Assembly: GCA_010093995.1 (NCBI GenBank)
Contig: ML992501.1
Location: 3,120,489-3,184,488, forward strand
Direction: 5' to 3'
Length of the DNA stretch: 64,000 bases
Origin: Elsinoe ampelina
Lineage: Eukaryota
The notes beneath the pieces were generated by a model. It had not been told where the DNA came from, made no database searches, and saw nothing but the letters and a program-made list of their open reading frames with translations. Below, one piece after another: positions 4,101 to 64,000 of the stretch (positions are counted from its first letter, which is position 1; each line of letters opens with the position of its first letter). The position numbers were made by a program, and so were the translations under genes.

Positions 4101-7100
4101 AAATCAGGCAGAATGGGACGCACATGGTCAAGGGTCTGGTCACCGCCCAGGTGCTGATCAGTCTGGTTGCCGATATCTACCTCACTCAGGCCTTATACGG
4201 TCAGCGCCCTTCTCACAACAACCCAATCTCGCAGGTCAATCTTACCGATCTCTACGTCCAAGTTGTTGATATGCTTGGTCGTCTACATTCAGCCTGCATT
4301 TGCGAAGTAATTCACCTTCAAAACAGTATGCCAGAGGTCTGGCTGGAACAGACCAAGGTCAAGGGGGCAACCTTTGACAATGTTCAAGCTGACAACATTA
4401 TGGGTCAAGTCAGCGCTCCCACGAACGGATCTGGCAGTGATGACAAGGCTGGCTCGGAGGCTAAAGACGAGCAGCAGTCTTCACATGATCTAGCACACGA
4501 ACACCCGGCACAATTCAGGAATACCGGAATTCTGCGACATTTGTTAAGCCAAATCCCATTCGCTACAACCTCTTTCATGCAGCAACTCGGGAGAAGCCTG
4601 TACACCAAGGGTAGAGTCATCATGGATGGTTGGCAGCGGCAGAACGCAACTGCCGTGGCCGAGCGCATATCAAGCGTCTTCGTTCGGCTCCTCGATGCGC
4701 CGTTCCCAGCTGAAGACTTGAAGAACCTGCAACGCTACCAGGTCGTCACACTTGTAACCATGTTGAAGACCTACCTTGACAAGCGTCCCTCTCACCGAAG
4801 CAATCAGCCGGAACTTCTGGTCGCGATTCTGAACCAGTTCTTTCTGCAAGGTGGATTCGCCAAGTTGAACGCCTGGGCTCTCTCCAGTTACCAATGTGTC
4901 AAGACATCGAAGGTGGAAGATGGTCATGATCCTGAATCTCCCCGTGCCTATGCCGAGAGGATCATCGGTGAAATCCTCGATTTCTACTCTAGGATCGTAT
5001 CTGCAAAGCTTCTCGAAAGCTCTCCTCAAGGATCGTCACTCAACGCGCACACTGGTGATCCTTCTTATGCAGGATATTTCGAGCCTGCCCAGCTTCTGAT
5101 CGAGATTCGGCACGCCGTCTACCCAGTTGCAAAGGAGATCTGGACACCCGAGGATGGCGATACCCACATACACCTCGAGACAGAAGACATGCGCGCGGTC
5201 ATCGGCACCCTGAAGCATATCCTGCAAGCCGACGGCGAAAATAAGGTCCGAAATCATGGACGAAGTCGCGGACAGATTCAGAAGAGGAAATGGAAGCCAA
5301 AAAGCACAGACAGCTTGCAGAACTTGACTAACTCTGGTATTCCGCGGGATCTTGCGCTCGAAGGACTCTTCCGGTGCTGCGACAACTTGAATAATGCTCG
5401 AGAGTACTGTGCACTTCGACAGAATGAGGAAATCGAGGCGGTCGATCGTCTACCACCACCTACCGAAGATCTGGAGCAGTCGCCGCCACCAAGTCAGGAG
5501 CCCTCTAGACAACAAGGTCAGTCTGGAGAGGCCAGCGCCTCTGCCCTGGCTCGCGTACCCTCGGTTGAGATGGAGGACGCAGATGCGGATGAGCCAACTC
5601 GCTCAAGGACTGATAATGACGACGTCATGTCTGACGATGATCCTTCTACCAGCATGTTCACAAGACTCAATACCCTTGCCAGTCGTACGTCCGATACTCT
5701 CAACATTGACTCCGACAACAGCACAGACGTCAGGAGTACAGTGAGCGAACTTCCAAGCCACCAACGTGCTGTCTCCGAATCAGAGAAGACAACCAATGAC
5801 ACTGCTGAGGAGCTTGAGAAGATGCGCAAGGCTCTTCGAGAGAACTTGGTGGATCGATGTATCGATATTCTGAACGAGCTTTCAGATGTCACGTTCGACA
5901 TTTCTGAGCTCATCCAAGCTGCGACATCAACTAGTCGGCCCGAGAGTAAGGAGCTCAAGGAGTCTATTGGTGAGACACTAGCAATGTCCTTGGTCTCGCT
6001 CTCCACCGATGAAACACCTCAGCGTAATAAGAAGATTGCGGCTGTTTCTCACCTACTTGCCCTGGTCCTGCAGGAGCGAGACTTCTTCGAGACCACCATT
6101 CAGACGCTCAAGCTCAATTTCGAAGAGTTTGTTGGACTTCTCAAGGTTCCATCGGACACTACCTCTGACAATTCTACTCCATACATGAGTAACGTTTTGC
6201 TCTTCATGGAAAGAATTCTCGTTGAGGATGAGCAACCTGCGCAGATTCAGTGGCACCCTCCATCTACGGACAGTATCCAAGAACTAACACCCCTTGACTT
6301 GCCACCGCCTGTGGTTGAGTTGCAGAGCAAGCAGACACTGTTTGCAGCAATTCTTGAGCTGCTGCCAAAGATTGGCAAGAATGAGCTTCTTGCTCTCTCG
6401 GTCATCCGTGTGCTGGTCATGCTCACTCGAAGGCGTCAGATCGCCAAGCAGCTCTCGGAACGACCCAATATCGGGCGATTATTCTTGATGGTCAAGCAGC
6501 TGTCCGGACTGGCAAATGACAAGCTCCAGAGCGGATTTCTGACAATTCTTCGTCACATGGTGGAGGATGATGACATTATCCGACAGATCATGAGGACTGA
6601 AATTCAGAACTTCTTCGACACGAATAGAAATCCCAGATCTATCGACACTGCTTCTTTCACCAGACACTTGTACCATCTGGTGTTGAGAGATCCCGAAATC
6701 TTTGTCGAAGTCTGTGCTGAGAAGATCGAGCTCAATCGCCTCGACACGCACTCACGGAACTCGCAGACTCTGGCGCTGAAAAAGAAGATTGAAGAGCCGA
6801 AGCCAAAGGAGCAGGCCTCCGAAAGTGCTGTGCTTAGCACCGAGCAAGCTGCTATTGAAGAGAAACCTCAGCTCGAAAGAGTCAAGACGTCAGAGATGAA
6901 GCCGCCGGTGGTAGAGAACCCTGACGGTGTCATTCAATTCATCTTGAAAGAGCTGTCTTCCTATCGGGACGTGGATGATAAGAACACCCCTGACGCCGCT
7001 CCAGCCGAGCCGCTTGAGCCCTCGGACACTCCAGATGTTGAAATGCCGGATATGACACCGCCTCCCGAAGCACCGCCTAGTGCTCGCCTGCCGGTCTCAC

Positions 7101-10100
7101 CATCGAAGACCGAGCGGGCCATCTTCAAGACTGAGGAGCATCCGATCTTCACGTACCGCTGCACACTTCTCCAGTGTCTCACAGAACTTCTGTCTTGTTA
7201 CAACCGCACCAAGGTTGAGTTCATTAGCTATTCCCCCAAGACAGAATCTTCGGCGACTACGCCATCCAAGCCCCGGTCTGGTCTTCTCAACTACATGCTC
7301 ACAACGCTGGTACCTGTTGGTACCCTCCAACATCAGGAAGACGTGGCTCACAGGAAGAAAGCGGCCACCTCCAATTGGGCCATCAGCACAATCGTGGCCT
7401 TGTGCGCGAAGACACAAGAGAATGCACTGTCTTCCAGGAACTCCGACAGATCGTCTTCAAATCTCGAAGATGAACCAGAACTTCTCTATGTTCGACGTTT
7501 CGTATTGGAACAGATCCTCAAGGCACTCAATTCTGCCATGCACTCTACTGAATCTCTCGACATGCGCTACTCTCGCTTCTTGGCATTGAGCGATATCATC
7601 AACAAGATGTTGACCGGCAAGCCTAGTGCCACCAACGCTCAGCTTAACAACGAGATCATCTCTTCCTCCATGAAGAATGTGGGCAAGCTCATGTACGAAA
7701 AGAATTTCGTCTCTGCTTTGACCGCAGCGGTGGCCGAGATCGATCTGAACTTCCCCAGCGCCAAACGGGCGATCAAGTATATTCTGCGTCCGTTGAAGTG
7801 GTTGACCGAAACCGCGGTCCAGCTCAGCTTGACGACAGATCTGGCGGGTCCAGGTAGCACCGAGGAGGACGACCTCTCCTCTTCTACCTCCGTTACCAGC
7901 GACGACTCCGATGAACGCGACGCGACGCCAGACATCTTCCGCAACTCCACCCTGGGACAATTCGAGCCTGGTCGTGAAGAATCCGAGTCCTCTGAAGGCG
8001 AGGACGAAGACGACTACTATGGCGACGAGTATGACGAGGACGAGATGGACTACGAAGACGAGCGGCCCATGGCAGCACACGGTGATGTTGTCTCAGATGA
8101 TGACGAAGATGTCGACGGAATGAGTCCAATCGAGGGCATGCCTGGAGATGTCAACATGGACATTGAGATTGTAATGGATGGAGAAAGCGGCGGCGACTCG
8201 GACGAAGACAGCTCGGACAATGACGATGAGGATGACGACGAAGATGATGAAGATGATGAGGATGGCGACGATGATGAAGGTAGTGTTGAAATCATCGACG
8301 AGATCAATGGCGATCGTATGGACGACGTTGAAGACATGGAAGGTGAAGACGAAGGAGATTGGGAAGACGATGACGACGATGGAGAAGGGTATGATGAGGA
8401 AGACGAGATGCAACACGAAATGTTCACTCGCGGCGGCCCTCTCGACAATCTTGTCCGCGTCATGGGTGGTGGAGATGATCAAGCCGACTTCATGGACCGT
8501 TTCGAAAACCCTCGAGTGATTGTCGACCGTATTGAGGAGGAATACTTCGAGGACGAAATGCCCCCAGAAGACGACGAAGATGAGATGGATGATTATGACG
8601 AGGAAGTCGTGTACGAGCCCGAGGCCGAATTCGACGAAGAGGAAGACGAGGACGACGACGAGGGTCCACCCTTTGGCGGGGCTTGGCAGCCAGATCCGAC
8701 TCGCTTCTTCCGTCATCATCAACACCATGCACGCATTCCTCCTGACCCCTGGGGCTCTAGAGATGCGCCTTTCGATGCTTACAATGCGGTGCGCACCCAC
8801 CGGCCCGGCATGACTGGACGCGGACAAGACGATGGTAGCAATCCGCTACTCCACCGCAACGAGGCTCGCGCCGTGGTCGTGCAAGCACGTCCGGGTGAGC
8901 AACCTTTCAGTGAGACGCTGTTCGCCGAGTACGGCCTCCCTCGTGGTCCTGGTAGGCATGGAACTGGTCGTCCTGCGGAGATTCCTCCCTTCCTGGCAGA
9001 TTTGATCTCAATGGTCGGTTCACCTACGGGAGGTCGACTCGAGTTTTATCCCGACAGGCACGGAAATATGAACGCATTCCAGCCCTTGGTTATTTCGGCT
9101 GGTCCTGGTGGTCTTGGTCTCCCACACCTACGCCATACTCGTCCCGGCACTTTGAGCGGCATGCTCCGCGGACAGCGTACAGATGGTACGATGCCTCTAC
9201 GCCCACCAACTCACGACCCTGGACAAGCAGTGTCCTTCATGCCAGCCCTCACAGTCGCGCGCTGGCAGGACGAAGCCCGACTTCTATTCGGAAGCCAACA
9301 TCAGGCTGAGGCTGTCAAAGTCACGAACTCAGTCTTAAGAGTCCTGACCCCTGCCGCAATCGAGGCGAAGCGCAAGAGAGACAAGGAAGAGGCCGAACGA
9401 AAGGCTGCCCAAGAGAAAGCACTTGAGGAGCAACGCAAGAAGGAAGAACAGGAGCGCAAGGAGCGTGAGGAGAAGGAACGTCAAGAACGTGAAGAAAGAG
9501 AGAGAATCGAAGCTGAGGCGGCAGCCGTGCATGCCCGAGAAGCGGCAGAGAAGGGTGAAGAGACATCGAACGCTCCCATGGAGGGTGTGGAGGGAACACA
9601 ACCTGCAGCATCGGCTACTACTGTGCCTGAACAGCCTGCCGAACGCCGTACAGCTCGAGTTCGGGGCAGTCTGGTCGACATCACCGAGCTTGGTATTGAT
9701 CAAAGTTTCCTCGACGAGATCCCAGAAGACATGCGTGAGGACGTCATCATGGCTCAACTACAGTCACGCCTTGAACAACAGACTTCAGCAACATCGCGAC
9801 CGCAACAAGCACAGCAGCCACAGCAACCGGCTTCCCGCGTACCAGAAGAGATTGATCGAGAGTTCCTCAGTGCATTGCCGGCAGATATACAACAGGAGCT
9901 CTTGAGAGCGGAGGCGACCGAACGCAGCCGCCGGGATCGCGAGGCGGCTCGCCGTCAAGCTCGAGAATCTGGTAACAATCAACCGGCGCAACCGGAGGAG
10001 ATGAACAGTGCTGATATCATGGCGATGTTAGAACCTCAACTCCGCCAGTCTGTACTAATGGAGGCTGATGACGAAATGCTTTCTGGTCTTCCAGCGGAAC

Positions 10101-12928
10101 TTCGCGCTGAAGCAGAGGCTCTCTTTGGCGGTCCACGCAATAGAATGCCGCGTATCCAAGATCTGATCGGAAATCGACACCGCGAGCTCGATCGGTCTAA
10201 CAGAATCCCTGCTGCATCGTCTGAACAGCGCACTCGTCGACCTGTGGTACAAATTCTGGACAAAGCTGGAGTCGCAACTCTGCTTCGACTCATGTTCGTC
10301 TCACTGTCTGGATCTGCACGCAGTGCCATGCTTGGTATTCTGACCGACATCTGCAAGAACACTCAGAACCGGGCGGAGGTGATTAGTATCCTCCTCTCCA
10401 TCCTGCAAGATGGCAGTTCCGACAGCGCAGCCCTGGATAAGAGCTTTGCACAGCTTACCACGCGTGCCAAACAGATGTCCGGTCCAAAGACGCCGCAACC
10501 ACTCCGACGTACGCTTACTGGGCAACAAGTCGCCCCGCTCAACAATGAAGCCAGCCCGCTCATGATCGTTCAGCAGTGTCTTTCAGCTCTCACGAGCTTG
10601 GCAGTCCAGAATGCTCGCGTGTCCACTTTCTTCCTCACTGAGCACGAGATGATATCTACGCAACGATCCAAGACGCCGAAGAAGGGCAAGAGCAAAGAAA
10701 GCAAGGCTCAGCGATATCCCATCAACGCCCTTCTGACTCTGCTCGATCGCCGTACCATCATCGAGAATTCGGCAGTCATGGAGCACCTCGCGAGCCTCTT
10801 GGTCAAGATCACGGAACCGCTGAAGACATATTTCCGTCGCGCCAAGGAAGAAGAGAAGAAGGCCGAGCAGGCTCAACAGGAAGCTCAAGAAACTAGCGAA
10901 GGTACTGCGGGTGGTTCCACCGATGTAGCCATGACTGAAGGCGCAACCGGAGAACAGCCTGCGACAGAGGGCGCCGAGAAGAAAGAAGCAGAAAAGCCCG
11001 ACGAGAAGAAGAAGCCGCGTGATGCACCACCGCCTGAGATACCTGAGGAGAACCTCTGCCTCGTCGTCAACATTATCGCCGCTCGCGAATGTAGCGGGAA
11101 GACGTTCCAGAACACTCTCGACATTGTCAACCATCTCTCTGCCATACCCGGTGCTCGCGACATCTTCGGCAAGGAGCTTGTGCGCCGCGCTTCTGAGCTA
11201 GGTGCCGAAGTTTTAGGTGATCTTGAGCAGCTACCAAAGCAGATCCGCAACGCCGAGAGCAATACTGAGATGCAGGGTCGTGCTTTGGCCGTCTTTTCAC
11301 CAGCAAGCTCGCACCAGAACAAGCTTCTACGGGTACTACTGGCGCTCGACTACATATTCGACCCGAAGCGCGCCAGCGAGAGAGGAAGCACCAGCACAGT
11401 GGAGAATCTTCCGCAAAAGGCCCGCGATGATCTTGTGTCCAGCCTTTACGACGACTCCACCTTTGTCAAGCTCTGGGATATTCTCAGTGACTGCTTGACG
11501 GCCATCCGCGAGCGTGGAAACATGAACAATATAGCCACTATCCTGCAACCTCTCATCGAGGCGTTCATGGTTGTCTGCAAGAACACCACAGCCAAGGAGA
11601 CGAATGTTGTGTCGACAAAGGACTTTGCTTCGCCACCACCCGAGAGTCGAATCGAGAGTCAATTCTTCCGCTTCACCGAAGACCACCGCAAGATCTTGAA
11701 TGACCTGGTCCGCCAGAACCCCAAGCTCATGAGCGGCACATTCGATGTGCTCGTCAGGAACTCCAAGGTGCTTGAGTTTGACAACAAGCGCAGCTTCTTT
11801 AACAAACGTCTGCATACCAGGTCACCCGAAGAGCGCGTGCCACACCAGACGCTCCAACTCAATGTTCGTCGCAGTGAGGTGTTCCTTGACTCTTTCAAGT
11901 CGCTGTTCTTCAAGAAGGCGAATGAGATCAAGTATGGCAAGCTTAATATTCGATTTGCCGGCGAGGAAGGTGTTGATGCTGGTGGTGTCACCCGAGAGTG
12001 GTTTGCAGCCATGTCACGCCAGATGTTCAACCCGAACTACGCACTATTCAATCCAGTGGCTGCTGACAGGACGACTTTCCACCCCAACCCGCTGTCGGTC
12101 ATCAACGAGCAGCATCTCACCTTTTTCAAATTCATTGGTCGCATTATCGGCAAGGCTCTGTACGAGAATCGTGTCCTCGACTGCCATTTCTCTCGCGCGG
12201 TTTACAAGCGCATCCTCGGTAAGAGCGTGAGCTTGAAGGACATGGAGACACTGGATCTGGACTACTACAAGTCGCTGATGTGGATGTTGGAGAATGATAT
12301 CACCGACGTGGCGTTTGAGACGTTCAGCGTGGAAGTGGACCGCTTTGGTGAGACCGAGACGGTGGATCTCAAGCCTAATGGACGCAACATCCCGGTCACG
12401 GAAGAGAACAAGCAAGAATACGTCAAGCTCGTGGTCGAACAGCGTCTCACCAAGAGCGTGGAGGAACAACTCGAACACTTTTTGATCGGCTTCCGCGAGA
12501 TTGTCCCGCTCGAACTCATCTCCATCTTCAACGAGCAGGAACTGGAACTTCTCATCTCTGGCCTGCCAGATATTGACGTTGACGACTGGAAGAACAACAC
12601 GGAATACCACAACTACAACCACACGTCCCCGCAGGTGCAATGGTTCTGGCGTGCCGTCCGCTCATTCGACGCCGAAGAGAAGGCCAAGCTGCTGCAGTTT
12701 GTCACGGGTACATCCAAGGTTCCTCTCAACGGGTTCAAGGAGCTGGAAGGCATGAACGGGTTCAATCGGTTCAACATCCACCGCGACTTTGGCAACAAGG
12801 ACAGGTTGCCTAGCAGTCACACTTGTTTCAACCAGCTGGATCTGCCGGAGTATGACAGCTACGAGGCGTTGAGGAGGCAGTTGTATACTGCCATGACGGT
12901 GGGGAGTGATCATTTTGGGTTTGCATAG
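1110..12928 (+). CDS. TOM1: HECT-type E3 ubiquitin ligase, Tom1/HUWE1 family (~3923 aa); exons 1110-1157, 1205-12928
   Basis: Exon 1 MGRIKKSAKEGHDATL, then intron 1158-1204 (GTGAGT..CTAAT..CAG) joining in frame to the long ORF. Features: N-terminal 'DLHSWIPVLNRLD', central D/E-rich tract, UBM-like 'IDQSFLDEIPEDMREDV' and 'IDREFLSALPADIQQELL', and a C-terminal HECT domain ('GEEGVDAGGVTREW', 'LLQFVTGTSKVP', catalytic 'LPSSHTCFNQLDLP', ending GFA). Confidence 0.97.
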
Positions 12929-49781: not shown

Positions 49782-50584
49782 TGGACATGACAAAGATGAT
49801 GACAAGCATGGGTTTGGGCAACAGCGTTGCGGATACGGATGGGGACAGTGGAACATGTCTACTTTTGAGTCCAGAAGACATGATGGATATACCAGATGAC
49901 TTTAATGTATGCCTTACGAGAATTTCGAAGAATGTGCATGCAATTGACTATGAAATGTGCTCATGCTATATTGAAATCAGTCAGACCTTGTCCACACCTC
50001 TGCTGCATCGAGAAGGATGCAATAGCTGAGTCTGAGGCAAGAGATACTACCAGCAGGTCGACACCTTGCACGTGTTCAGGAAAAGTCAGGATGACAGCCT
50101 GGTAGCAAAAGAAATAGGAGCTACCAACATATCTCCTCCGTGAATTCTATGACAAGGAGTCAGGAACATACCTGGTAAGTGTGGATGTAAAATTACTACC
50201 AGGTTGCCGTCCTCACCTCGGACCTCACATGGCGAAAATGCCGCAACATGGCAATACTACCAGAACAACATTGCCACACCACCACGATATTCACTCAATA
50301 GCAATACACATGTTCTCGCCTCCCAATCACCCACTTGCATTGTCACATACCTCACCTTGCATATCAATTGCCTTTGTCTCCCCGCCCCAACCCCCGAAAA
50401 CAGGACAATAGCAAACCCAACAAAGACACCTCACAATGGGCCCATTCCGAGCAATGCGCCGAAGACAGACAATACCGCAAGCAATCCCTCAAAGCACTCC
50501 CCTTCTTCTCCGTTGCCTATCTGCCCTTCCCTTCTCCCTACCAAAAACCCACAAACAACTTTCCTACCACCGCCACCACCAACC

Positions 50585-52030
50585 ATGGCACCAAAGCGCG
50601 CAACCACCGCAGCGAAAAAGGCAAAGGGTACGTCCCCCTCCCACCCAACTACTCGCGGGACACCGTCCGTAGTGGATCGGTATACTGACGCTCGAGCGAC
50701 AGGCAAAGCGACCCGCGGCGGCAAGAAGACGGCGCCAGAGGGGCGCATCACCAAGGCGGACAAGGGTGGCGGGAAGGCGGCTGAAGCGTTGGGGAAGTTG
50801 GCGACCGAGTTCGGGGTGAGGATGGCGGCGGCGAGGGAGGCGGCGAGGGAGGCGGAGGAGGAGGTCGTGGCTGGGGTGTTGTCTGGGGTGGAGGGGGTGG
50901 TTGCCATGTTGGGTGGGGAGGGGGCGGACGGGGAGGCGGAAGAGGAGGGAGAGGATGTGGCTGCGCTGACGGGGATGCTGGAGGGGATATATGGGGTGAC
51001 GAAGGAGGTGGTGGCGTCGCTGATGGGGAAGGGGGTGGTGTTTGTTGAGCCGCGGGCGGGGCGGTATGAGTTTGTGCAGCGCTGGATGCCGCATGTTTAC
51101 GATACCGACGATGAAGGGTACAAGGCCCATGCTCTGGTGTCGCTTATCAGCATGACTTGGGTTCGACAGCATCTCGGCCATGGTCCTTTTGGGCCGCAGA
51201 AGGGAGACGTCCTGCCGTATTTCGTTTATGTCGAATCTTTCCTTTCCGAAAGTCCGGATCACGCGCCATACAAGGCTTGGGTAAAACATACACTCTCTCT
51301 ACTGGATAAGCAACAGCCTTCACTGGTCACCAAGATGCTCGATAACCGCGCCGCTCAAACGTATGCAGCGATCACTCAAGTCTTGACAGCAGTAACATCT
51401 CTGAAGCTCACGGACGATGAGAAGAACAACATCGCTACCATCGCCGACCAAGCCACAGCACTTTCGAACGAGCTCTGGAAGAGTCCGACTGCCTGGCGAC
51501 TGATCCCCATGGGTTTGAACTTCAGCGAGAAGGACAGCTGTCCGACCTTCAAGAACGAAGCACACATGGCCCTGGATGTCGAAGATGGAGTCGAGTTACC
51601 ATACGATACGCCCATGCATGGTGTGGTATTTCCTGGTCTGTCGGAAGTCAAACGCGTGGATGGTAAAGCGCAGACGACTGCAAAGGCCAAGGTCAAGGTC
51701 GTCTGCACGGAGCCCGAAGGGAAAGAGGAAGGAGAGTCGGCAGGTGAACAGCCCAGCACAAGGCCAAAGAAGACGCCAGAGAAGACATCCGACAGGAGTC
51801 TGGAGGCAGGGTCAGAGAAGACTCTCGGAACAAGTCCGGAGGGAGGGTCGGAGAAGGGCGCTCGGACAACGCCAGAGGGAACCCCAGAAAAAACGCCAGA
51901 GGAGACCCCAGAGCGGACGTCAGAGGAAGCACCAAAGACAGGTGCAAAGAGGCGGCCAGAAAGCACGCCAGAGGGATCTCCAGAGAAGAGTCCAAGAAGG
52001 AGCCCAAAGAAGACGCCAGCGGGGACCTAG
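50585..52030 (+). CDS. Uncharacterised partner protein P1 (helical, GrpE-like C-terminal motif, T/S-P-E repeat tail; ~456 aa); exons 50585-50627, 50703-52030
   Basis: ATG in ACCATGG context and a 75-nt intron (GTACGT..CTGAC..CAG). Aligns with P2 ('MTWVRQHLGHGPFGP' vs 'MTWVRFHLHAGPFGP'). C-terminal 'VVFPGL..AKAKVKV'. Confidence 0.8.
   Translation: MAPKRATTAAKKAKGTSPSHPTTRGTPSVVDRYTDARATGKATRGGKKTAPEGRITKADKGGGKAAEALGKLATEFGVRMAAAREAAREAEEEVVAGVLSGVEGVVAMLGGEGADGEAEEEGEDVAALTGMLEGIYGVTKEVVASLMGKGVVFVEPRAGRYEFVQRWMPHVYDTDDEGYKAHALVSLISMTWVRQHLGHGPFGPQKGDVLPYFVYVESFLSESPDHAPYKAWVKHTLSLLDKQQPSLVTKMLDNRAAQTYAAITQVLTAVTSLKLTDDEKNNIATIADQATALSNELWKSPTAWRLIPMGLNFSEKDSCPTFKNEAHMALDVEDGVELPYDTPMHGVVFPGLSEVKRVDGKAQTTAKAKVKVVCTEPEGKEEGESAGEQPSTRPKKTPEKTSDRSLEAGSEKTLGTSPEGGSEKGARTTPEGTPEKTPEETPERTSEEAPKTGAKRRPESTPEGSPEKSPRRSPKKTPAGT
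51770..52027 (+). repeat. Coding 12-nt degenerate tandem repeat (TPEK/TPEG/TPEE/SPEK) in the P1 tail
   Basis: Recurring ACGCCAGAG/ACCCCAGAG units, translated 'TTPEGTPEKTPEETPERTSEE..STPEGSPEKSPRRSPKKTP'. Confidence 0.75.
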
Positions 52031-52694: not shown

Positions 52695-54701
52695 TCAATC
52701 GAAACCTGTCGATGTTTCCGCAATGGTGGAGCCTCCAGCTTGCACCGAAACTACCAGCAGCCTTCCCGATACTTTCATGGCGATTTTGTAATCGAGTTGT
52801 CGATACAAGGTACCGTCAACCCGAACAATCTTGAATGCTCCGCGAGGTATCTTATCGGGATCAACTCTACATGTACATTGCGAGTGCATGCCGATCTGCA
52901 ATCGCTTTGGTCGATGACCGAGGTCTCCGTAGCTGCAGAAGACGTGGTGCGAGAAGCCAACAATCTTCTCGCCAATGCCATAGCGTCGCTCAAAAGAATA
53001 AAGGAAGACTGCACCCGGCATGAACGCCTTACTTTTCGAGATCCCCCACTCCATTTCGGCCACAACCCAGCGAGAGCCAGTCTCTGCATCACGAACCATC
53101 CACTCCTGGGGATCATGCCCCCATTGCCAAGGTCTTTCCCTCGTCAAACCGAAGCTGCATTTAGGAACAAGCCAGAACGCTACTTCCTCGTCGTGATCGA
53201 CTCCATAGCGTGCTGCGCCGAGCGCCACAGCTGCCGCGCCTAAGGATGGCTGGATAATTTGCAACGGCGCCGAGAGCTTTGAGTCTCGCAAGTTCTTGAA
53301 CTCCGCGTCGGTGGGATGGTAGGGACTGCTTTCCACGATGTCTGCAATTGGGCGTGCCAAACGTGCGTTGACGGCCACCTCAACACATTTTGCACCCCCG
53401 AATCCACCGACCATGATCACTGCCTTTGGAGGCGAGCCCCTCAGCGCGGCTTTTATAACCTCTGCTTCCAGCAACACAACAATCTTTCTGATCTCCTGGT
53501 CGAATATTTCATGCAGATGATCCCGCTCAAGATGAATGGCCGTTTTGAGCTTGCGTCCCGGCTGCCGCACCAGTAGGGTGAAGATACAATCCGCATCGTA
53601 CTCAATCGACGGGTCGTATTCCTTCTTCACGCATTCCTGAAACTCATGGAGAATCTCTCGCCACTGAGCAGGGTCTTCCTGCATGATCTGATCAAGAATA
53701 TTGGCTGGGAGGCGCCGGCGTAGATGACTTTGAAAGGCCAAATCGACAAAGACTCCGCCCCCAACCTGACCACTGCCAGCGATCTGGTTGAAACATCGTG
53801 GAGACTCTCTAGCAATGGTATAGGTGGCCGTTTGGATTGTTCCTCCTCCTGCATCGCAGACGATAAAAGTATCCCCCCCTCGCAGGGTCCGAGGGCTCAT
53901 GGAGTCGAAAACATGCACCACCGCTGCGTTCAGCTCGGAGAGAAGTATCAGATCACGCCCCATGCCAGCTTCCACTGCGGCACGCTTGATTCTGTCCCTC
54001 TCCATCTCGGACCATATGTTTGGCACCGTCACAACCCACTGAGTTCTGGCGGCATTATACACGCTGCTGTCGCAAGCGACTCTGACACGCTCCTCCATGG
54101 TCTCCCGGATTTTGACAAAGAAGTCGCTAATCACCTCGCCCGCCGTCTTCCCCACAGCCGCCATGTCCTTTCGGAGACCGGTGAGTTGCGGAAAGGGGGG
54201 TATCCGCTGTCTATCGTCGTACACGAGGAGCTTGAAATGGCGGAGGGTATCGTCAAAGCCGTCTGCTGCATCGCCGCAAGCTTCAACTACCCTGCTAGGT
54301 GCGTCAGGTGTGTCAGGTGTGTCAGGTGTGCCAGTGGTGCTAGGGGCGCCAGGTGCGCCAGTCGTGTCAGTCGTGTCAGTCGTGCTGGGTGCGGCGCGGG
54401 CTTGGTAGTATTTGACCTGTGTCTTGACCCTACCCTCCGCCGAACATCCTGGCCATCTACTCTCTATCAGTAAGAGCTCAAGATGATTGATGGAAGCCTG
54501 GAACATACCGCCGTATATGTCTCAAATCTACCACTTCCGTCGAGTCGTCATGGACCGTGAATGCTGCCCTGGGAAATATCAGCGGCCTGCGGCCCCTGCC
54601 TTTTGGAGGCTTATTTACTTTGTATACGTGGTTCCCAGATCGACAGCTGCGACGATGGTGTAACGGCTTAGTTGCCTTGATGAACGTCTCTTCAGAGACA
54701 T
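52695..54701 (-). CDS. Atypical Hsp70 (HSPA12-like) H1, divergent (~634 aa); exons 54701-54619, 54568-54509, 54456-52695
   Basis: Exon 1 'IVAAVDLGTTYT' (phosphate-1), 'HFKLL', 'VTVPNIWS', 'LSELNAAV', 'IVCDAGGGT', 'IMVGGFG'. Two phase-2 introns (54618-54569, 54508-54457). Confidence 0.9.
54294..54392 (-). repeat. Coding 9-nt tandem repeats (TTD/TPD/APG) inserted in H1
   Basis: GTCAGGTGT x3 and GTCGTGTCA repeats on the + strand, giving peptide APSTTDTTDTTGAPGAPSTTGTPDTPDTPDAPS. Absent in H2 and H3. Confidence 0.8.
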
Positions 54702-55113: not shown

Positions 55114-56417
55114 ATGGCTCCTAGAGTAGATCCTCACACCAGGATATCCACCTCACCTTCCCCTACGCCTTCCCCTTCGGGCATTCGGAAAGAGGTTGCA
55201 GCGACAAAGGCGGATGATCTGAAAAGAAAGCAACAGCTCGAGGCAGAACTGAAGAAGCTACAGGATGAGATTGATGGCAGTGGTGATGCTGGAACAACCT
55301 TGCCACGCGACGAGGATGTTGAAGCTACCGATGGCAATGTCGAGGAGGAAGATCAATCGGGAGATCACGGCGAGGATGCGGAGCGCTGGAGGAACGAAGC
55401 AACGCAGTGGCATGATGACTACCTAGAGGTCGTTCAAGAGAACATCAGACTTAGAGAGTTACCGGACTACATCTCAGTGGACGACCTGCATCAAGAATTC
55501 GAAAGTCTATACTTCCACATACGCGGCTGGGTGGTGCGTACCATCGAGAATCACGGTAAGTGGGCTACTACCCATCACCGCAACCAGGCTGACATCGCAC
55601 AGATTTCGATTTTCGCACGAAACTGTTGAAGTGGTCCTCTGTAAGATGGTTCCGTGCATGGCAGCCTGGCTCGCTTTCCGGGCATACGTCGGACGAGTTC
55701 AAGAATAACGCCCTGATATGTCTGTTGGGCATGACATGGGTTCGTTTTCATCTGCACGCCGGACCCTTCGGACCGTCAACGAAGCTTCCCATGTCTGCTT
55801 ACGTCCAGATGGCCAAGCGCCTCGAAGGCATGCCACCCCTGCTCTACCACAGATGCGATATTGACCATTGACAACAGATAAGGCGTATATCGCTGAGTAC
55901 AGACCCTGGTTGATCAGCACCCGGAAATGGCTTGACAAGTACTACCCCGACGACATCAGCGACATGATGCAGCGCCGCCGTGATGGCATCGCAGAAGCCT
56001 TCTTCGACTCCATCCACCACGCCACCAACTTCAAGCTGGACGACGAGCTTCGCCGGCAGCTCCGACGACTCGCGGACCGTGCGGCCACACTCTCTGATCA
56101 CCTCCACGCTTCTCCCGCGACCTACGAGCTACCACCATACGAAGTCTGGTATGATCCGAAGAAGAGCACCGTCCCTCGCTACTCTAGGGAGACGCATGAG
56201 GATATGGACAGGGTAAACCGGCCGGACGATGTGTATGTGGCTTGCCACGCCCTCGTCTGGCCAGGATTGAGTCAGCACGCCGACGAGCGGTGCCAGAATG
56301 TGAGTGCTCTGCCTGAATTGATCATGGGGAAAGACTAATGGAGTGCAGGTGGAGGACAATGTGCGACGTGTGAAGAGCAGGATACGTGTGACGACGATGC
56401 CACTGCCGGATGATTGA
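55114..56417 (+). CDS. Uncharacterised partner protein P2 (coiled coil plus GrpE-like C-terminal motif; ~385 aa); exons 55114-55555, 55603-55827, 55878-56299, 56349-56417
   Basis: Three introns (the second a predicted GC-AG) join the ORF fragments into a protein colinear with P1 and P3, ending 'THED..LVWPGL..VKSRIRV'. Confidence 0.8.
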
Positions 56418-57467
56418 AGCGTGGCGGGCAGAGCGGCAGTTTCCTGATAGTCTGTCGATTTGCATGGTGTGCGAGAAGAGAGGGACGCTGGGAGTCATGG
56501 TTTGATGGATTATTGCTTGACCGTGCTGTCTCTCAATGGAATGCTTTTGGTGCACGTTAGCATGTCAGTCTATGCAGGCTGTCCATACTGGTAGACCTTC
56601 GGCTTAGAACATGTTGGAATGATTTGAGTATGCATCAATCTATACCATTTACACGCACTTTTTAGACCAACCGCATGTATGATTCGGGCCATGGCAATGT
56701 GATCAGGAGTCAAAATATTGCCGTCCAAGAAGTGGCAAGAAAGTTGCCGGCACAAAAAATGGAAAAAAAAGTTGCCCGCATGAGATGTGAGATTTCTAGA
56801 CCTCGGCAACCAATTTGCCACCACACCTGACCCCATTGCTCCCGCACAAGAATCTGTCACATCCCACTGGCCAGCACGAATCCATCTCACTGCTCGCCGG
56901 CACTATTTCAGACCTCGTGGCTATCGTTGAGATGCTCACCATCAGGTGCAACCACTCCGACCACCTCAGCCGCGCCCGCACGCTCGGAACATGACGGCAA
57001 ATGCTTCCTCCAGGACAAGGGTTTCGCGACATGGATGCCTGGAAGCTGTGAAAATGGAAACGGTTTCGGGTGGACTGACTTTTCTTCAGAGGTGATTCTG
57101 GTGGCCAACATGCAGAGTCGACCTGCGTTGCACTGCACCATCACCTAGACATGTTTCTCCAGCTTCGTCTGACAGCAACGTCCTGGACACGGACAGATCT
57201 GACCATGGGCAACCTCACGGCGAAAATTGATTAGCACATACATCTGCAATAACCCTCATTGAAGCAAGTCGATGTCTTGATACTATCGTCAGAAGCTATT
57301 GGATGCTGTGGCGCATCGTCTTCGGCATCCATCTTGTCGGTTACGCCGAGCACTCGCTGCGAGCACGAGCTCTCACAAGTCGCACGCACTACCCAGGCCT
57401 TCTTCCGATAATCGAATTCCTGATATGAAGTTTTACCATCAGCTGGTATCCAGATCATCGACCTCCT

Positions 57468-59418
57468 CTACTCGAACTTTGCGTCCACGCTCCCATGGAC
57501 TGTCCCTCCGATGCGGAAGTCAAACTTGAGACGACCTGACTCCAGCTGGACCCCGAGATGGAAGTCAAGCCTGAGATAGCCCCTTCCACTGAGACTCTCG
57601 CCTTCATGCCACTTGTGCTTGGGCACACGCTTGGTATTGGCGGTGACGTTGCAAAGCTTCTTGACTTTGCCGTATGGACTAGAGCTGTAAGCGGTCGGGG
57701 CCTCATCTTCCTCGCAGTAGTACAGTGTACTCCAACTTGAACTGGGTTGGCTCCAGCTGTACTGACAGAAGCTGTGGAGGACGGGAGAGTTCGATACAAT
57801 ATTGTCGCCTTTCTTGATGAACCACTTCATCTGACTTGAAGCTCTTGTCTTGCCGTCATACTGGTCCACATACTTGCTGGTGACTGGGTGTATCTCTGGA
57901 TCAAAGATTGGGTCGTACACAGTGCCGTAATGCCTCCTGGCTTTGCGGTGTGAGACGAGCTCTGTATTCATAGCGTTGCTTAGAACGGCCCCGCGCACAA
58001 CAGCGGTCCAAGCATGGGCGGACTGAATGACCTGGAGACCGCCCTTGGGGATCATCGTTGGCTTACTGGTCGGCTTGTGACCTGCTCGAGCGTATGGAAC
58101 AATCTGAAAGTCGTTCTCGACTGGGTTGGCGAAACGTCTGCGAATGCAATCATGCAGATATTGGGACATGCAGAATCCGCCAACCAGGATAACAGTCAGT
58201 GCCTTCTTGCCTTGAGTCGCAGCTTTATTTCGCTGATCTTCGATCAATCCGATCGTCTCATCAATCAATGGCCTGAAGATCGAAGCCACTTCGGCACTAG
58301 TGATGGTGAGGAAGCCGCCCTGGATACCCCTCGCAAGATCGTCCTCGACTCCTGGCACTGGAACGAAGAACTCTTCGGCGTCGTACTCATCTGATGTGTC
58401 CTGAGGATTGAAGTCTTTCTTTGGCCCGTCCTCGAACCAATCTTCGGCGTTACGCAGAGACATGGGTCTTTCTCTTTTCATCTCTTCGAACGCTTGGCTA
58501 CCCATCTTGCTCCGCAGCAATCCAACAAAGCGGATGTTGAGGAATGTAGCACCACACATACCGCCAGTCCCGGGAACGACTTCTGAAAACCTCAAAGGAC
58601 TGACGTTGTTCACCTCATAGGTGATGAGATCGACCGTGCCACCTCCACCATCGCAGACGATGTAGACTTGTCCGACCTTGACCTGGCCAGGGGGCAGTTT
58701 TGAGAGGGCGTAGATTGCTGCTGCTTCGGGCTCGCTGATCATCTGAACGCCGGCGCCGATGCCAGCAGTCTTTGCAGCAGTCATAGTCGCATCCTTCGCT
58801 GCATCGCTCCACATTGCCGGAACCGTCAGGACGTATTCAGTCTTCGTTGTAGCCATCAACTTGGCGCCGTAGCGGTTTAAGAGCGCCTTCTGAATCTGCT
58901 CCATCATCTCGGTCAAATAGTCTGCGGCGACCTGGACCGGGGTCTTTCCGATCTTCTTGAGCTGCTCCTCCAGAGTCGCCCTATCCACAAAGCTCGGTAG
59001 CCTCTGGTCCTTATCGAGCAGGAGCTTGATGCACTGGATACGGTCATTGTCGGACAAGGCGCGCTTCCCAATCACTGCGTTGGGACCCTTGCTGTAGGAG
59101 ATGATCGTCGGAAGCTTTTCAGATGTGGAGCTGTTGCCACCGAGCCAGCTATATTGATGTTAGCCTTCTCCATCGTGCAAGTCACACAGGTCACCTACGA
59201 CATGATCACGCGGATGTCATCTAGGTTAATCTCGGTGCTTCCGGCGTAGATGTACGCCGCCCTGGTAGTGGATTCGTGTGGTTCAGAACCATCAGTGAAG
59301 TGACTGACCCGCTGAACGTGGTGCCGAAGTCTATGCCAACCACGATCCTGTCTCTCGCGCGCGGACGTTCCGCTGCAGCCAGGGCTGCGAAGTCGTACTT
59401 GCTTGATTTGCGCGCCAT
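57468..59418 (-). CDS. Atypical Hsp70 (HSPA12-like) H2 (~617 aa); exons 59418-59309, 59261-59199, 59148-57468
   Basis: 'IVVGIDFGTTFSG', 'EKLPTIISY', 'LTVPAMWS', 'ISEPEAAA', 'CDGGGGTVDLITY', 'ILVGGF', 'AVVRGA', 'ARRHYG'. Same two phase-2 introns as H1. Confidence 0.95.
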
Positions 59419-59730
59419 GCTTGCTATTGTTCACTGGAGATGCCGAAAGTTTGACTGTAAGTGATGCTGAACTCAAGTGAGATCACGGCCTGGGAAGAAA
59501 CTTTGTGAATGGTGTCGAGGAAGGATGAGCTGAGTGTCTTGTTATATCATTGGTGTGTGATGCCGACGATGTTGATGTGAAGTGGAGAGAATATTTGGGT
59601 ATTGATTGTGTGAGGGCTGTTTTGTAAACGTGAGGGAAGGCAAGGGCAAAGAGAGGCAAGCACTGTGATACTTTTCTCTATGGGTTCTCCTCGAGGGTGT
59701 GAGGATATCAAGTGAAGTGAAAAGGAACGA

Positions 59731-59776
59731 TCACGTGCCCGGCATATCAGTCAGTGTCCACGTGCACTGCCACGTC
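59731..59776. promoter_or_regulatory. Cluster of E-box/ACGT elements in the divergent H2-P3 intergenic region
   Basis: TCACGTG at 59731-59737, CACGTG at 59759-59764 and CACGTC at 59771-59776, roughly midway between the two start codons. Confidence 0.4.
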
Positions 59777-60032
59777 AGTTAGAGTCCCTCATCATCACTC
59801 AACTTAGGAACGACCATACCTATATTTTACACCCACAATTTCTGGACTTACTCCGCTCTCAATTGACTTCTTGCGTCAAATCTTCACTACTCGATATGAA
59901 CTTCATCAATAGCTTCACAAGAGGGTAGAGTGGATCTTCGGACAGATACGTCGTCTTACTGACACTGTCATCAGATCGAGTTCCTCACACGATCATCACG
60001 CCACGGGTACGGAGGCTGCACGCGCTGGTAAC

Positions 60033-61487
60033 ATGAGTACATACAACAGACAGACCAGACAAAACACGACATCGGCAGGGTCTACGCGAGATCAACAAGA
60101 TACGGACCGCATCATGACTCTACGCATGGAAAACAGGAGGTTGCGTCAAGAGCTTGAACAGCTGCAGCTTCGAAACAACGCTTATCGGACGGCCAACAGC
60201 AACATCAACGACGCCAACAGGATTTTGAAAAGAAAGGTCCGGGCAGCGGGACAGACCATCAAGAGATGTCAAGACATGATCAACCTCCAAAAAACTCAAA
60301 TTCAAGCATTGCTCGAAAGGGCCAACACGGCTGAGAGTCTATACAAGGGCATACGAGCTTCGTTCGGCGAGTTGGAAGGCCAGAGGACAGATCTTCAGAA
60401 TCTTGTCATTGAGCTCAAGCAAGAGATCTCCACCCAGAATATGCTTGAGGACGAGCTGTCCGACGACGAGATCCATAAGCAGTGCAGAGCATTGTTTCAC
60501 CGCATGCAAGATTGGGCGGTGGGGGTCGCTCGTGACGCAGGTGGTAGGTACATCTGTCGTCCAAGCCTTCAGACACTGACACACGCGCAGGCAACCTCAA
60601 GAAGCCCAACACGTCAGCCTATTTGTTACACGAATACATGCCTGACATGGCCTACATGACACCAGCCGACTTTACGATCCGCTGGACCACCTATGTCCTT
60701 GCAACCACATTCTTCTGCCACTACCAGGGACTGTACTATTTCGGCAACAACAGTAGCGATGATATCGACGCGATCAACGAGACCTGCCGCATCATGTCAT
60801 GTAGGTACAACAACCCACGTGAATGAGCCTGTCTGACGTATACAAGTTTGTGACGACTTCAAGTCATGGCTACGCAATTTGCGGGAGCATATCCAGAAGA
60901 CATATCCTGACTTTGTGCAAGAGATGCATGAACACGTCCAGAAGAGCCTGGTTGACAAAGTGATTATCACCATAAAGACAACTCTGAACATCGATCTCAG
61001 CGCCACGAGGATCATCAGAGTCAACAACATCATCAAAGATGCGATGAAGCTCACCGACACCCTCCATTTTCACTCCGCAACCTACCTTATGGGGCTCCCC
61101 AACGGTGTCGATATGAGTCAAGGCAGTTTCCACTTCTACGACGGCGAGCAGCATGAAGACATCTCTGGGCCCACCCCCACCGCGCTTGAGACGGCAGTAG
61201 TGGGTGGGTCGGTCTTCCCTGCGTTGTACAAGACTCGCGATGACAAAGGCGCTTGCGTATGCACATGTTCCCCCGAGAGCGAAGAGTGTACTGACATCTC
61301 ACAGATGGAGGCCGAAGTCGTCAGCAAAGCCAGGGTCATCGCACTCCCTCACGTCAGCGCAATGGTCATTATCAAGCAGGAAGAAGGGTTGCAGGAGGAT
61401 GATTTAAGAAACGTCAGCTCCTTCGATCGGGACGGTGAGATGGGTGAGACAGAACGCAGTATGCCGGGAGCCTACACATATGGCTGA
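60033..61487 (+). CDS. Uncharacterised partner protein P3 (long coiled coil plus GrpE-like C-terminal motif; ~437 aa); exons 60033-60543, 60591-60800, 60847-61256, 61305-61487
   Basis: About 110-aa heptad region. Three introns at positions and phases equivalent to P2. Ends 'FYDGEQHED..SVFPALYK..VVSKARVIA'. Confidence 0.82.
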
Positions 61488-61953: not shown

Positions 61954-63991
61954 CTATGGTGTCTCCGAGCGCCTGGTCCCAGCGGAACGCCCCCTGCGCT
62001 TCGGCGGCTGATGTATGAGAGACTTGCCGGGAGCACTAGATCCGACGAGCTCCATGTGATCGGACAGCTTGTTTGCGGCATCATCGTATCCCACTTCCTC
62101 AACCTCATAGACCTCGTCACCAAACACCATGCTGAAGCGCATGAGGCTTTGTCCCGTGTCGATTCGCAGCTTGTATGATGCACTCATGAATTCTGCCTCA
62201 TGTATGTCCTTATCCTGCTTCCAGTGATCATCTGGCAAGTTGTCTGTTCCGGTCCTAATGTCGCATGCGACCTTGACGTGCTCGTTGAGAAAGTCTGGTG
62301 GTTCGCCATCACCATCGAACCTATACAATATATCGCCGATGGACTCTGGCTTTCCGTCTGAAAGGTAGGTATCTTGCCAGAGATCGATTTCGTGCACTTG
62401 ACCAGACTTGATAACGTCACCCTTCTTGATGGGCCATGTCATGCGATATCGTTCGCGGGTGCAATTGCTGAACTTGTCGTAGTAACTATTGGGCGATCCT
62501 TCGGCCACCTTTGGATCACTGGCGAAACCATAGGAGAATCTTGACCTGCGAGAGGTGATCAAGGTGTCGTTACGCAAGGCATGATAGACAGCACCACGCG
62601 CGATGGAGTTCCATGCGGAATGGGCGGGCCTAGTAATCTCGATATTTCGCCGCTTTCCGTCAAAGTGTCTCTTGATGCGCTCATATAGGTACGCAGACTG
62701 GCCAAAGCCACCGATCAAGAGTAAACGGTCGATTTCGATGCCCTTGACCTCAACCGTCATCAGTTGTTCCTCGATAAGCTGGATGATCGGCTGTACAGCA
62801 CACTCGAAGATGTGGGTCAACGTAGTGGTGTCTAGATCTATGCGGTCCCCGACGATACCAAATTCGCTCAAGTCGTCCTTGGAAGTAAAGCAGATGGAGA
62901 ACTGCTTGTGTTTTGTGTGCTTGGTGTATGGGTTGAACAATCTCTTCGGACGACGATTGAATTCGACCAAGGCTTTAGGCCAGGCTTCAGGGGATGCTGC
63001 ACAGACTTCTTGGAATTTTTCGGTACTACCAAGCTTTTCTGTGATGAATGTCCGTAGGGCCATGTCCAGTGTTACGCCGCCGACTGTACCACCAGTCCCG
63101 GGAGCAACCTCTTCAAGCACAATAGGAGATGTTGCCACAACCTTGTATATGATTAGGTCGGCGGTACCGCCTCCAATGTCGCAGACAAGTACGTAATCGC
63201 CAACTTTGATAGTAGCACCAACAGTAGACTCTAACACACATACTGCAGCTGCCTCTGGTTCGGACAAGAGTGTGACATCAAGTCCGTACCCTGCTTTGAT
63301 AGCTGCGGTGCGTGTGTTCTGCTTTCCGGCTTCAGACCATACTGCCGGGTGGGTCAAAGTCCAGCATATCTCTGTGGTTTCCATGAACGATGGGCCGAGG
63401 TGCTCTATTAGCCAGTCTTCTGTTGCTTCGCGGACGAGTTTCAGCTGATCTGCAACAACATCGATTGGGCTTTTGCCCGTCGCCTCTCGAAGATTTCGCT
63501 GTTCTTCGAGCTCTGTGAATTCTCCAGGGAAAACTTTTTCGGGATCCAGGGAAAGCTTGGTATAACGAAAGATCTTCTCATCGTGCTTCTCTGGATCCGG
63601 CCATTGAGGGTTGCCAGCTTCATCATACACGAGCTCTGAGGGAGTCTTCTGCGCATTCTCTATGGGCCATCTACATTGGTCAGTTTTGATTAGCCATGAT
63701 ATTCGAGTTCACGAACTCTCGGAAGTTTTCGATGTCCTTCACACTCTTGAACGTGGGCTGGAATGCCCAGGCGACGCTACGACGAATGAGTATGATGAGT
63801 GCAATTTCAGAATAGGATTCATACCCGATGAAAGTTGTGCCGTAGTCAACTGTAATGGGCATACGCGGTTTTGGCCTGGACGGGAATTCATGCAGTGCTA
63901 CTGACTCTGAGGCGGTTTTGGTTGCGTCAATCGTTAAGTCGACGTCGCAAACTGGGAGAGTCGACAGCGTCGATCTACGGGTGGACACCAT
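61954..63991 (-). CDS. Atypical Hsp70 (HSPA12-like) H3 (~647 aa); exons 63991-63825, 63776-63717, 63670-61954
   Basis: 'ITVDYGTTFIG', 'QKTPSELVY', 'LTHPAVWS', 'LSEPEAAA', 'CDIGGGTADL', 'LLIGGFGQSAYL', 'SIARGA'. Same two phase-2 introns as H1 and H2. Confidence 0.93.
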
Positions 63992-64000
63992 GTTGTAGTG

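Follow-up and report, generated by a model that had tools for sequence, protein, structure and literature searches.

Why does a gene of no recognised family stand beside a gene for an Hsp70-type ATPase three times over at a single locus of Elsinoe ampelina, a fungus pathogenic on grapevine, and might the products of the two genes work together? The locus lies between 50.5 and 64 kb of the window analysed here (64,000 nucleotides of contig ML992501.1), where three genes that we call P alternate with three genes that we call H, making three pairs in the order P1> <H1 P2> <H2 P3> <H3. A first-pass annotation, centred on 55114-61487 (bounded by the start codon of P2 and the stop codon of P3, with H2 inside, P1 and H1 to the left and H3 to the right), had taken the P proteins for remote relatives of the nucleotide-exchange factor GrpE that act on the neighbouring H. 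We arrive at a broader reading, in which the array comprises three expressed P–H modules, P belongs to the MIEAP/DUF641-GIL1-IRKI branch of coiled-coil proteins, and each P is a dedicated cofactor of its neighbouring H. We put this forward tentatively, as somewhat more apt to be wrong than right; nucleotide exchange in the manner of GrpE would be one specific, unproven version of it, suggested by analogy. The genes, with the one unusual intron, are as follows.

50585..52030, plus strand: P1 gene, a single exon encoding 481 residues, within the open reading frame 50204-52030
52695..54701, minus strand: H1 gene, main exon 52695-54461, exon 1 with VDLGTTYT; 5′ exons read by eye
55114..56417, plus strand: P2 gene, exons 55114-55555, 55603-55827, 55878-56299 and 56349-56414, then the stop codon
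55828..55877, plus strand: second intron of P2, of the GC-AG type (GC donor), joint at 55825/55876, slidable by 2, in three of four runs
57468..59418, minus strand: H2 gene, exons 59418-59309, 59261-59199 and 59148-57468, with GIDFGTT, VCDGGGGT and VGGF
60033..61487, plus strand: P3 gene, proposed exons 60033-60543, 60591-60800, 60847-61256 and 61305-61487, 437 residues
61954..63991, minus strand: H3 gene, main exon 61954-63630, 5′ exon with VDYGTTF in 63680-63991, start codon uncertain

Each P gene is convergent with its downstream H gene, and the start codons of the divergent pairs lie about 410 nucleotides (H1/P2) and about 615 nucleotides (H2/P3) apart. Identity among the paralogues is only 21-34% for P and 25-33% for H. 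Because these values are low and the order has nevertheless been kept, the alternation has outlasted a long divergence: judged by their sequences, both sets of paralogues are old, and strict alternation has been maintained regardless. Within each set of three, the closest pair is P1-P2 among the P proteins and H2-H3 among the H proteins. We dropped an attempt to match each H to a P by closest-pair identity, since three taxa cannot separate topology from rate.

The P2 gene is transcribed and spliced as modelled. Spliced contigs from four public runs of two studies bridge all three of its introns exactly, and one contig of 2143 nucleotides carries the whole spliced message; further contigs cover three parts of H2 and parts of P3. 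The four runs had been typed "RNA?" by guess, and we take them to be RNA because their contigs join across introns. A database protein (P0003, hypothetical, Elsinoe ampelina) matches the 385-residue P2 product from end to end at 100% identity. For P3, whose product is absent from the protein collection in a word-based search (which gave two matches for P1, one for P2 and none for P3), the last intron is probable: at 61257-61304 there is a 48-nucleotide, in-frame segment with the signals GTATGC...CTGAC...CAG, and its removal gives the spacing between FPAL and KARV found in the other family members. The match of one contig begins at 61305 after 19 unplaced letters, which fits a P3 acceptor there. 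In addition, a contig from one run skips 59924-59973, a stretch of 50 nucleotides with GT..AG ends that lies 5′ of the P3 start codon. This suggests that P3 has an intron in its 5′ untranslated region and that its transcript starts at or before 59759, within about 340 nucleotides of the H2 start codon.

The P1 gene is read as a single exon whose product has a basic disordered N-terminus, a helical core, the C-terminal motif module described below and a low-complexity tail. Its nearest relative, at 91% identity, is a protein of Elsinoe batatas. The database model of P1 (P0001, 351 residues) starts at 50975, and the in-frame upstream part (50585-50974), which begins with MAPKR, aligns with a fragment of a homologue, P0005. 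N-termini of the MAP[KR] type also occur in P2, P0006 and P0007. Because the upstream part aligns with P0005 and such starts recur, the annotated P1 is probably 5′-truncated. The P1 tail (51719-52030, about 100-110 residues) is enriched in Pro, Glu, Lys, Thr and Ser and contains repeats of the PEKT/PEGS kind; it is common to P1 and the E. batatas orthologue, whereas P2 and P3 lack it.

That the neighbours of P are Hsp70-type ATPases, as had been proposed, is borne out for all three. H1, H2 and H3 exceed the Pfam HSP70 gathering score of 20.6, with 28.0, 36.7 and 32.3 bits, respectively, and keep the nucleotide-binding motifs: D-x-G-G-G-T and G-G-F are invariant in all three, and D-[FLY]-G-T-T is encoded in the 5′ exons. 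Every H gene consists of one long exon and two short 5′ exons. DnaK and HscA are the best named or solved relatives of the H proteins, which match the models of these two families with E of 1e-15 to 1e-8, far below the family cut-offs; among solved sequences, H2 comes nearest to the DnaK nucleotide-binding domain (E=4.2e-10). Given the HSP70 match and the retained phosphate and adenosine motifs, we regard H1-H3 as divergent Hsp70-type proteins that are probably competent as ATPases. The label "HSPA12-like" comes from the first-pass annotation and from the look of the motifs, and is a putative one. Like HSPA12A/B, H joins a divergent Hsp70 nucleotide-binding domain, whose motifs are intact, to a C-terminal part that is non-canonical, and the stretch W-x-G-G ... 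K-x-P-T after the first motif resembles HSPA12. H1 alone carries an insertion of about 35 residues rich in Thr, Pro and Asp after the first nucleotide-binding segment (54290-54400, minus strand), which H2 and H3 lack.

The P proteins share a C-terminal pattern, [FY]-x4-H ... V-[FW]-P-[GA]-L ... K-x-[RK]-[VI], and the motif sets quoted for P1, P2 and P3 in the first-pass annotation are all present. In P2, the first two segments are encoded in exon 3 and the third in the last exon.

51473..51718, plus strand: P1 C-terminal module, FKNEAH, VVFPGL and KAKVKV
56102..56414, plus strand: P2 C-terminal module, YSRETHED, LVWPGL and KSRIRV; split by the intron 56300-56348
61062..61364, plus strand: P3 C-terminal module, YDGEQHED, SVFPALYK and KARVIA (open reading frame 60879-61487); spans the probable intron 61257-61304

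On sequence grounds, P1, P2 and P3 are securely true paralogues. The P1 core retrieved P2 at E=5.7e-19 in an exhaustive search, and exon 3 of P3 matched a four-sequence family profile over 129 columns with an hhalign probability of 98% (E=1.1e-13), exon 2 of P3 giving only a weak match (P=0.014). The family is tiny at the sequence level: when 1.84 billion representatives were searched exhaustively with HMMER, seven proteins were retrieved, six besides P2. The C-terminus is present in five of the six (P0002, P0004, P0006, P0007 and P0008), and all five show the three segments, with Gln replacing the motif His in P0008; the Pro and Leu of FPxL are invariant in all seven aligned C-termini. A metagenome scan with the four-sequence alignment gave 152 pattern matches, none of which was confirmed.

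AlphaFold models P2 with a mean predicted local distance difference test (pLDDT) score of 61. The start is disordered, as are the N-termini of all P proteins, and is followed by helices at 25-55 and 85-113, a helical core at 122-300 of about nine helices (pLDDT about 60-94) and an end that is ill-defined but has short strands at 344-350 and 353-357. The DSSP assignment of this model fits the layout described earlier, an N-terminal helical region, a helical middle and a beta-rich end, the last of these at pLDDT below 50. The N-terminus of P3 has sub-threshold matches to coiled-coil Pfam families (e.g. ZapB, E=0.011). The helical middle of P, about 190 residues and the confident part of the model, is without a clear solved relative.

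Which known proteins does P resemble? We compared P2 with the ESM Atlas, whose own bar for naming a family is a feature similarity of 0.9 and for which a template modelling (TM) score just over 0.5 on a short stretch "means little". The clusters closest to P2 115-385 are ascomycete families without a name (features 0.92-0.95; TM by query 0.73-0.80), and the ascomycete clusters with a P-like predicted fold have 57-205 members. Among the matches listed, both Atlas searches place just two named families near P2, MIEAP and GIL1_IRKI_C. P2 115-385 scores 0.83 in features against GIL1_IRKI_C/DUF641 (TM by query 0.63-0.64 over 217-221 residues) and 0.78 against MIEAP (TM by query 0.56 over 195 residues); the C-terminal part, P2 296-385, scores 0.79, 0.77 and 0.76 in features against MIEAP/GIL1_IRKI_C (TM 0.55-0.61 over 61-68 residues). 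The kinship with MIEAP and GIL1/IRKI that had been suspected thus stands as far as these are the nearest named Atlas families (features 0.76-0.83, TM 0.55-0.64), but the scores are sub-threshold and no Pfam match accompanies them. Both this kinship and a likeness to the GrpE head, the weaker of the two, are leads only.

MIEAP (SPATA18) is induced by p53, and to our knowledge its structured C-terminal half has no assigned biochemical fold. P is like it (PF16026) in features (0.78-0.79), TM score (0.55-0.56) and layout. As described in the part of PMC10845071 that we consulted, Mieap has disordered regions around two coiled coils, followed by a structured hydrophobic C-terminal half that is proposed to bind cardiolipin or phosphatidic acid. 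P differs in lacking the Pfam match, and Mieap has no reported Hsp70 partner (the term "hsp70" is absent from that paper). Fungi are said there to be without Mieap orthologues; the Atlas lists Mucoromycota clusters with PF16026, to which P would add another relative from fungi, at a greater distance.

To the plant DUF641/GIL1-IRKI families (PF04859, PF24994) P is alike with features of 0.83 and 0.76 and TM of 0.58-0.64, again without a Pfam match. The plant partner here is a dynamin-like GTPase, whereas H is an Hsp70-type ATPase. According to excerpts of PMC13189119, COST1, a DUF641 protein of plants, forms a dimer, binds the GTPase RHD3 and increases GTP hydrolysis of RHD3 by 20-30%, and in an AlphaFold3 model the COST1 C-terminal domain adjoins the RHD3 G domain. 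We compare COST1 as a DUF641 protein and a putative carrier of PF24994. A disordered or coiled-coil N-terminal half joined to a structured C-terminal half is shared by the P2 model and by the descriptions of Mieap and COST1 in those excerpts. A basidiomycete "G domain-containing" Atlas cluster (MMR_HSR1 in 73% of members) also aligns with P2 115-383, over 250 residues at TM 0.72. This hints, from predicted models, at further proteins in which the P core is joined to a GTPase.

The resemblance to GrpE that was originally proposed is harder to place. GrpE is the nucleotide-exchange factor of DnaK, and also of mitochondrial Hsp70, and each monomer contributes two short helices to its bundle. P is like it in the order of its parts (disordered N-terminus, long helices, a helical region and a small C-terminal module containing beta strands), in three colinear segments ([FY]-x4-H for F-D-P-x2-H, G-x-V-F-P-G-L for V-x3-G-Y, K-x-K-V for R-P-A-x-V) and in the position of its gene next to that of an Hsp70-type ATPase. 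The 30 Atlas models nearest to P2 296-385 include a cluster of bacterial GrpE, at TM 0.56 over 66 residues, the aligned part lying within PF01025. Against 31 GrpE sequences (E. coli grpE and genes from 30 sampled genomes of its phylum), hhalign placed the whole P family in one local alignment, P2 259-383 on GrpE 114-197. Its register is just that of the first-pass annotation and pairs p-F-d-x-x-H-e-d with F-D-P-n-x-H-Q-A, G-x-V-F-P-g-L with the V-x-x-x-Q-x-G-Y strand and K-x-K-V with R-P-A-m-V. The C-terminus alone gave P=0.065, or 0.038 after long tails were trimmed. When columns were shuffled, 7 of 200 shuffles reached the real score of 16.9 (mean 11.1, standard deviation 2.3), and the reversed profile scored 10.0. 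MIEAP/GIL1-IRKI and GrpE, the two likenesses suggested in the first-pass annotation, both surfaced in the Atlas without being given as input.

The differences from GrpE are equally concrete. Significant sequence or profile similarity is lacking, and the loops between the motif segments are longer in P. The GrpE architecture, a long helix pair and a compact four-helix bundle, is not reproduced, since the middle of P has about 190 residues in about nine helices where a GrpE monomer gives two helices to its bundle. P would have a divergent Hsp70-like protein as its partner, GrpE has a canonical Hsp70. GrpE was missing from the top 50 of three fold searches against the PDB, which returned generic helical matches and noise with models that are poor in the C-terminal part, and Foldseek with a model of the P1 C-terminus found nothing in the PDB at E<=0.001; because the models fall below pLDDT 50 in just this part, the absence of GrpE from the fold searches is uninformative. 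The GrpE fold survives as an Atlas neighbour at TM 0.56 and a motif register in hhalign, but not as a similarity visible to Pfam or to HMMER against PDB sequences, and the middle of P is much larger than the GrpE bundle. Several weak pointers, in part independent of one another, agree, though no single one of them is significant, so that the idea is neither shown nor refuted.

In the mechanism that we propose, H is the divergent Hsp70-type ATPase, with its phosphate-1, phosphate-2 and adenosine motifs retained, and P would represent an ascomycete branch, evolving fast, within the eukaryotic MIEAP / DUF641-GIL1-IRKI superfamily. Its parts would be an N-terminus that is basic and disordered, long helices that probably pair as a coiled-coil dimer, about 190 residues of helical core and a C-terminal module of about 75 residues that has the segments F-x4-H, V-F-P-G-L and K-x-K-V as its framework. 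Dimerisation and positioning of P would fall to the coiled coil, and the C-terminal module, docked on the nucleotide-binding domain of H, would alter nucleotide turnover, either release or hydrolysis, on the model of GrpE acting on DnaK and comparably to COST1 acting on RHD3. Binding of P to H and an effect on nucleotide exchange are what we infer from these parallels. The pairing of the genes suggests, without proving it, a dedicated regulator and its ATPase, and a dimeric coiled-coil cofactor of a nucleoside triphosphatase (NTPase) is the most economical description of P because of the COST1-RHD3 precedent and the G-domain fusion in the Atlas. A complex prediction with the H2 exon products and P2 115-385 scored 0.00 in two runs; with neither controls nor alignments, and with chains of 20 and 36 residues that lie outside its calibration, this score counts neither for nor against binding.

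A bolder extension, that the C-terminal module of P, MIEAP/SPATA18 and DUF641-GIL1/IRKI is an ancient and strongly diverged homologue of the GrpE head and that the whole superfamily consists of dimeric coiled-coil nucleotide-turnover factors for non-canonical NTPases, the orphan Hsp70s of HSPA12 type in fungi and possibly in animals, is a long shot.

A number of observations weigh against the cofactor reading, its superfamily assignment or its GrpE version. None of ten family rows (P1, P2, exons of P3 and five homologues) matched the Pfam GrpE, MIEAP or GIL1_IRKI_C models at E<=10, with HMMER filters that remove most matches above about 0.1, and the P proteins have no match to any other Pfam model at that threshold or in NCBIfam or PADLOC. 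Profile methods gave nothing significant for GrpE, MIEAP or GIL1_IRKI_C: against PDB sequences the C-terminal profile had no matches at E<=10 and the family profile found coiled-coil noise only, and the hhalign alignment to GrpE has a probability of about 1% (P=0.057), with 1% against E. coli GrpE alone. The Atlas scores for all three named families are under the service's own bar. The region on which the argument turns is also the worst modelled, P2 residues 309-385 being below pLDDT 50 and the C-terminal 138 residues of P1 having a mean pLDDT of 48.9. The superfamily is not tied to Hsp70 partners, since plant GIL1/IRKI proteins act with a GTPase or a receptor kinase. Finally, the linkage of P and H is known from one locus, and the closest pairs, P1-P2 and H2-H3, do not fit a simple duplication of convergent P–H units (as far as three taxa can tell).

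The last two points lead directly to the possibility that P and H are functionally unrelated neighbours and that their alternation is the footprint of tandem segmental duplication. Because all of the linkage comes from this one locus, duplication of a pair that met by chance could have produced it; the differing nearest pairs agree with this, as does the convergent arrangement of each P and its downstream H, in which there is no shared promoter. We nonetheless consider this explanation quite improbable, since the alternation survived divergence to 21-34% with neither partner lost or interrupted, and the divergent spacings of H1/P2 and H2/P3 are compatible with shared control regions. Another explanation keeps the partnership and reverses its direction: P would be a MIEAP-like scaffold or lipid binder whose disordered region and coiled coil drive assemblies and whose C-terminal half binds a ligand such as a phospholipid, and H would remodel P or those assemblies, making P a client or adaptor rather than an exchange factor. 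The architecture of P does parallel the Mieap description in the consulted part of PMC10845071, MIEAP is among the nearest named families, and the long low-complexity tail of P1 and the disordered N-termini of all P proteins would suit a scaffold. The similarity to MIEAP is, however, below threshold, lipid binding and condensate formation are attributed to P purely by analogy, and the register of the conserved C-terminal segments with the GrpE head is left unexplained; we view this account as rather unlikely, though a serious contender.

The array could also be a rapidly diversifying conflict or stress locus in which H is an NTPase switch and P a coiled-coil sensor or effector, the likeness to GrpE being convergent or spurious. 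Its layout would be that of NTPase-centred immune modules. Paralogues at the same locus share as little identity as noted above, and P-like cores seem to occur fused to G domains. P also appears to evolve fast, because the family is barely visible by sequence (the seven representatives among 1.84 billion) and yet ascomycete clusters predicted to share its fold have 57-205 members. Large HSPA12 expansions in bivalves, reported in the accessible portion of PMC13580251, would fit as well. Scans with Pfam, NCBIfam and PADLOC, on the other hand, recognised no effector-type domain in P or H, the PADLOC scan giving a single weak match, H3 to PDC-M61B (E=6.8e-4). We judge this explanation unlikely, and return to the cofactor reading.

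If P is a cofactor of H, the interest extends beyond this fungus. The function of HSPA12-type Hsp70s is described as "presently unknown" in the portion of a 2026 review that we consulted (PMC13580251), and the open-access full texts and bioRxiv preprints that we searched yielded no HSPA12 cofactor and no connection of MIEAP or DUF641 to GrpE or HSPA12. In the same literature we found no co-mention of HSPA12 and Mieap, GrpE and Mieap came together in unrelated mentions only, and HSPA12 occurred with SPATA18 only in what are, by title, omics or expression studies. Plant DUF641 proteins have been tied to an NTPase only recently, to go by the excerpts of PMC13189119. The occurrence of a MIEAP-like gene beside an Hsp70-like ATPase gene three times yields a hypothesis that can be tested at the bench, namely that this superfamily regulates nucleotide turnover, and the P–H system, being small and intron-poor, is suited to expression in E. 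coli. Were the GrpE-head version true of the whole superfamily, it would give MIEAP and HSPA12 each a biochemical function; should the likeness to GrpE fail, the P proteins would still make up an ascomycete family that is new and unannotated and whose gene partner is conserved.

The genes 5′ of 50 kb in the window are ordinary: they encode Mob1, an HMG-box protein, an SNF2 helicase, a GAS2-domain protein, a major facilitator superfamily transporter, an arylamine N-acetyltransferase and a HECT ligase of the Tom1/HUWE1 type. The last of these is an ordinary-looking E3 ubiquitin ligase encoded by an open frame of 3823 residues at 1457-12928, with DUF908, DUF913, UBM and HECT domains. On the opposite side, H3 reaches the window edge with its 5′ end (63680-64000), and a fourth P gene could follow beyond 64000 if the alternation continues.

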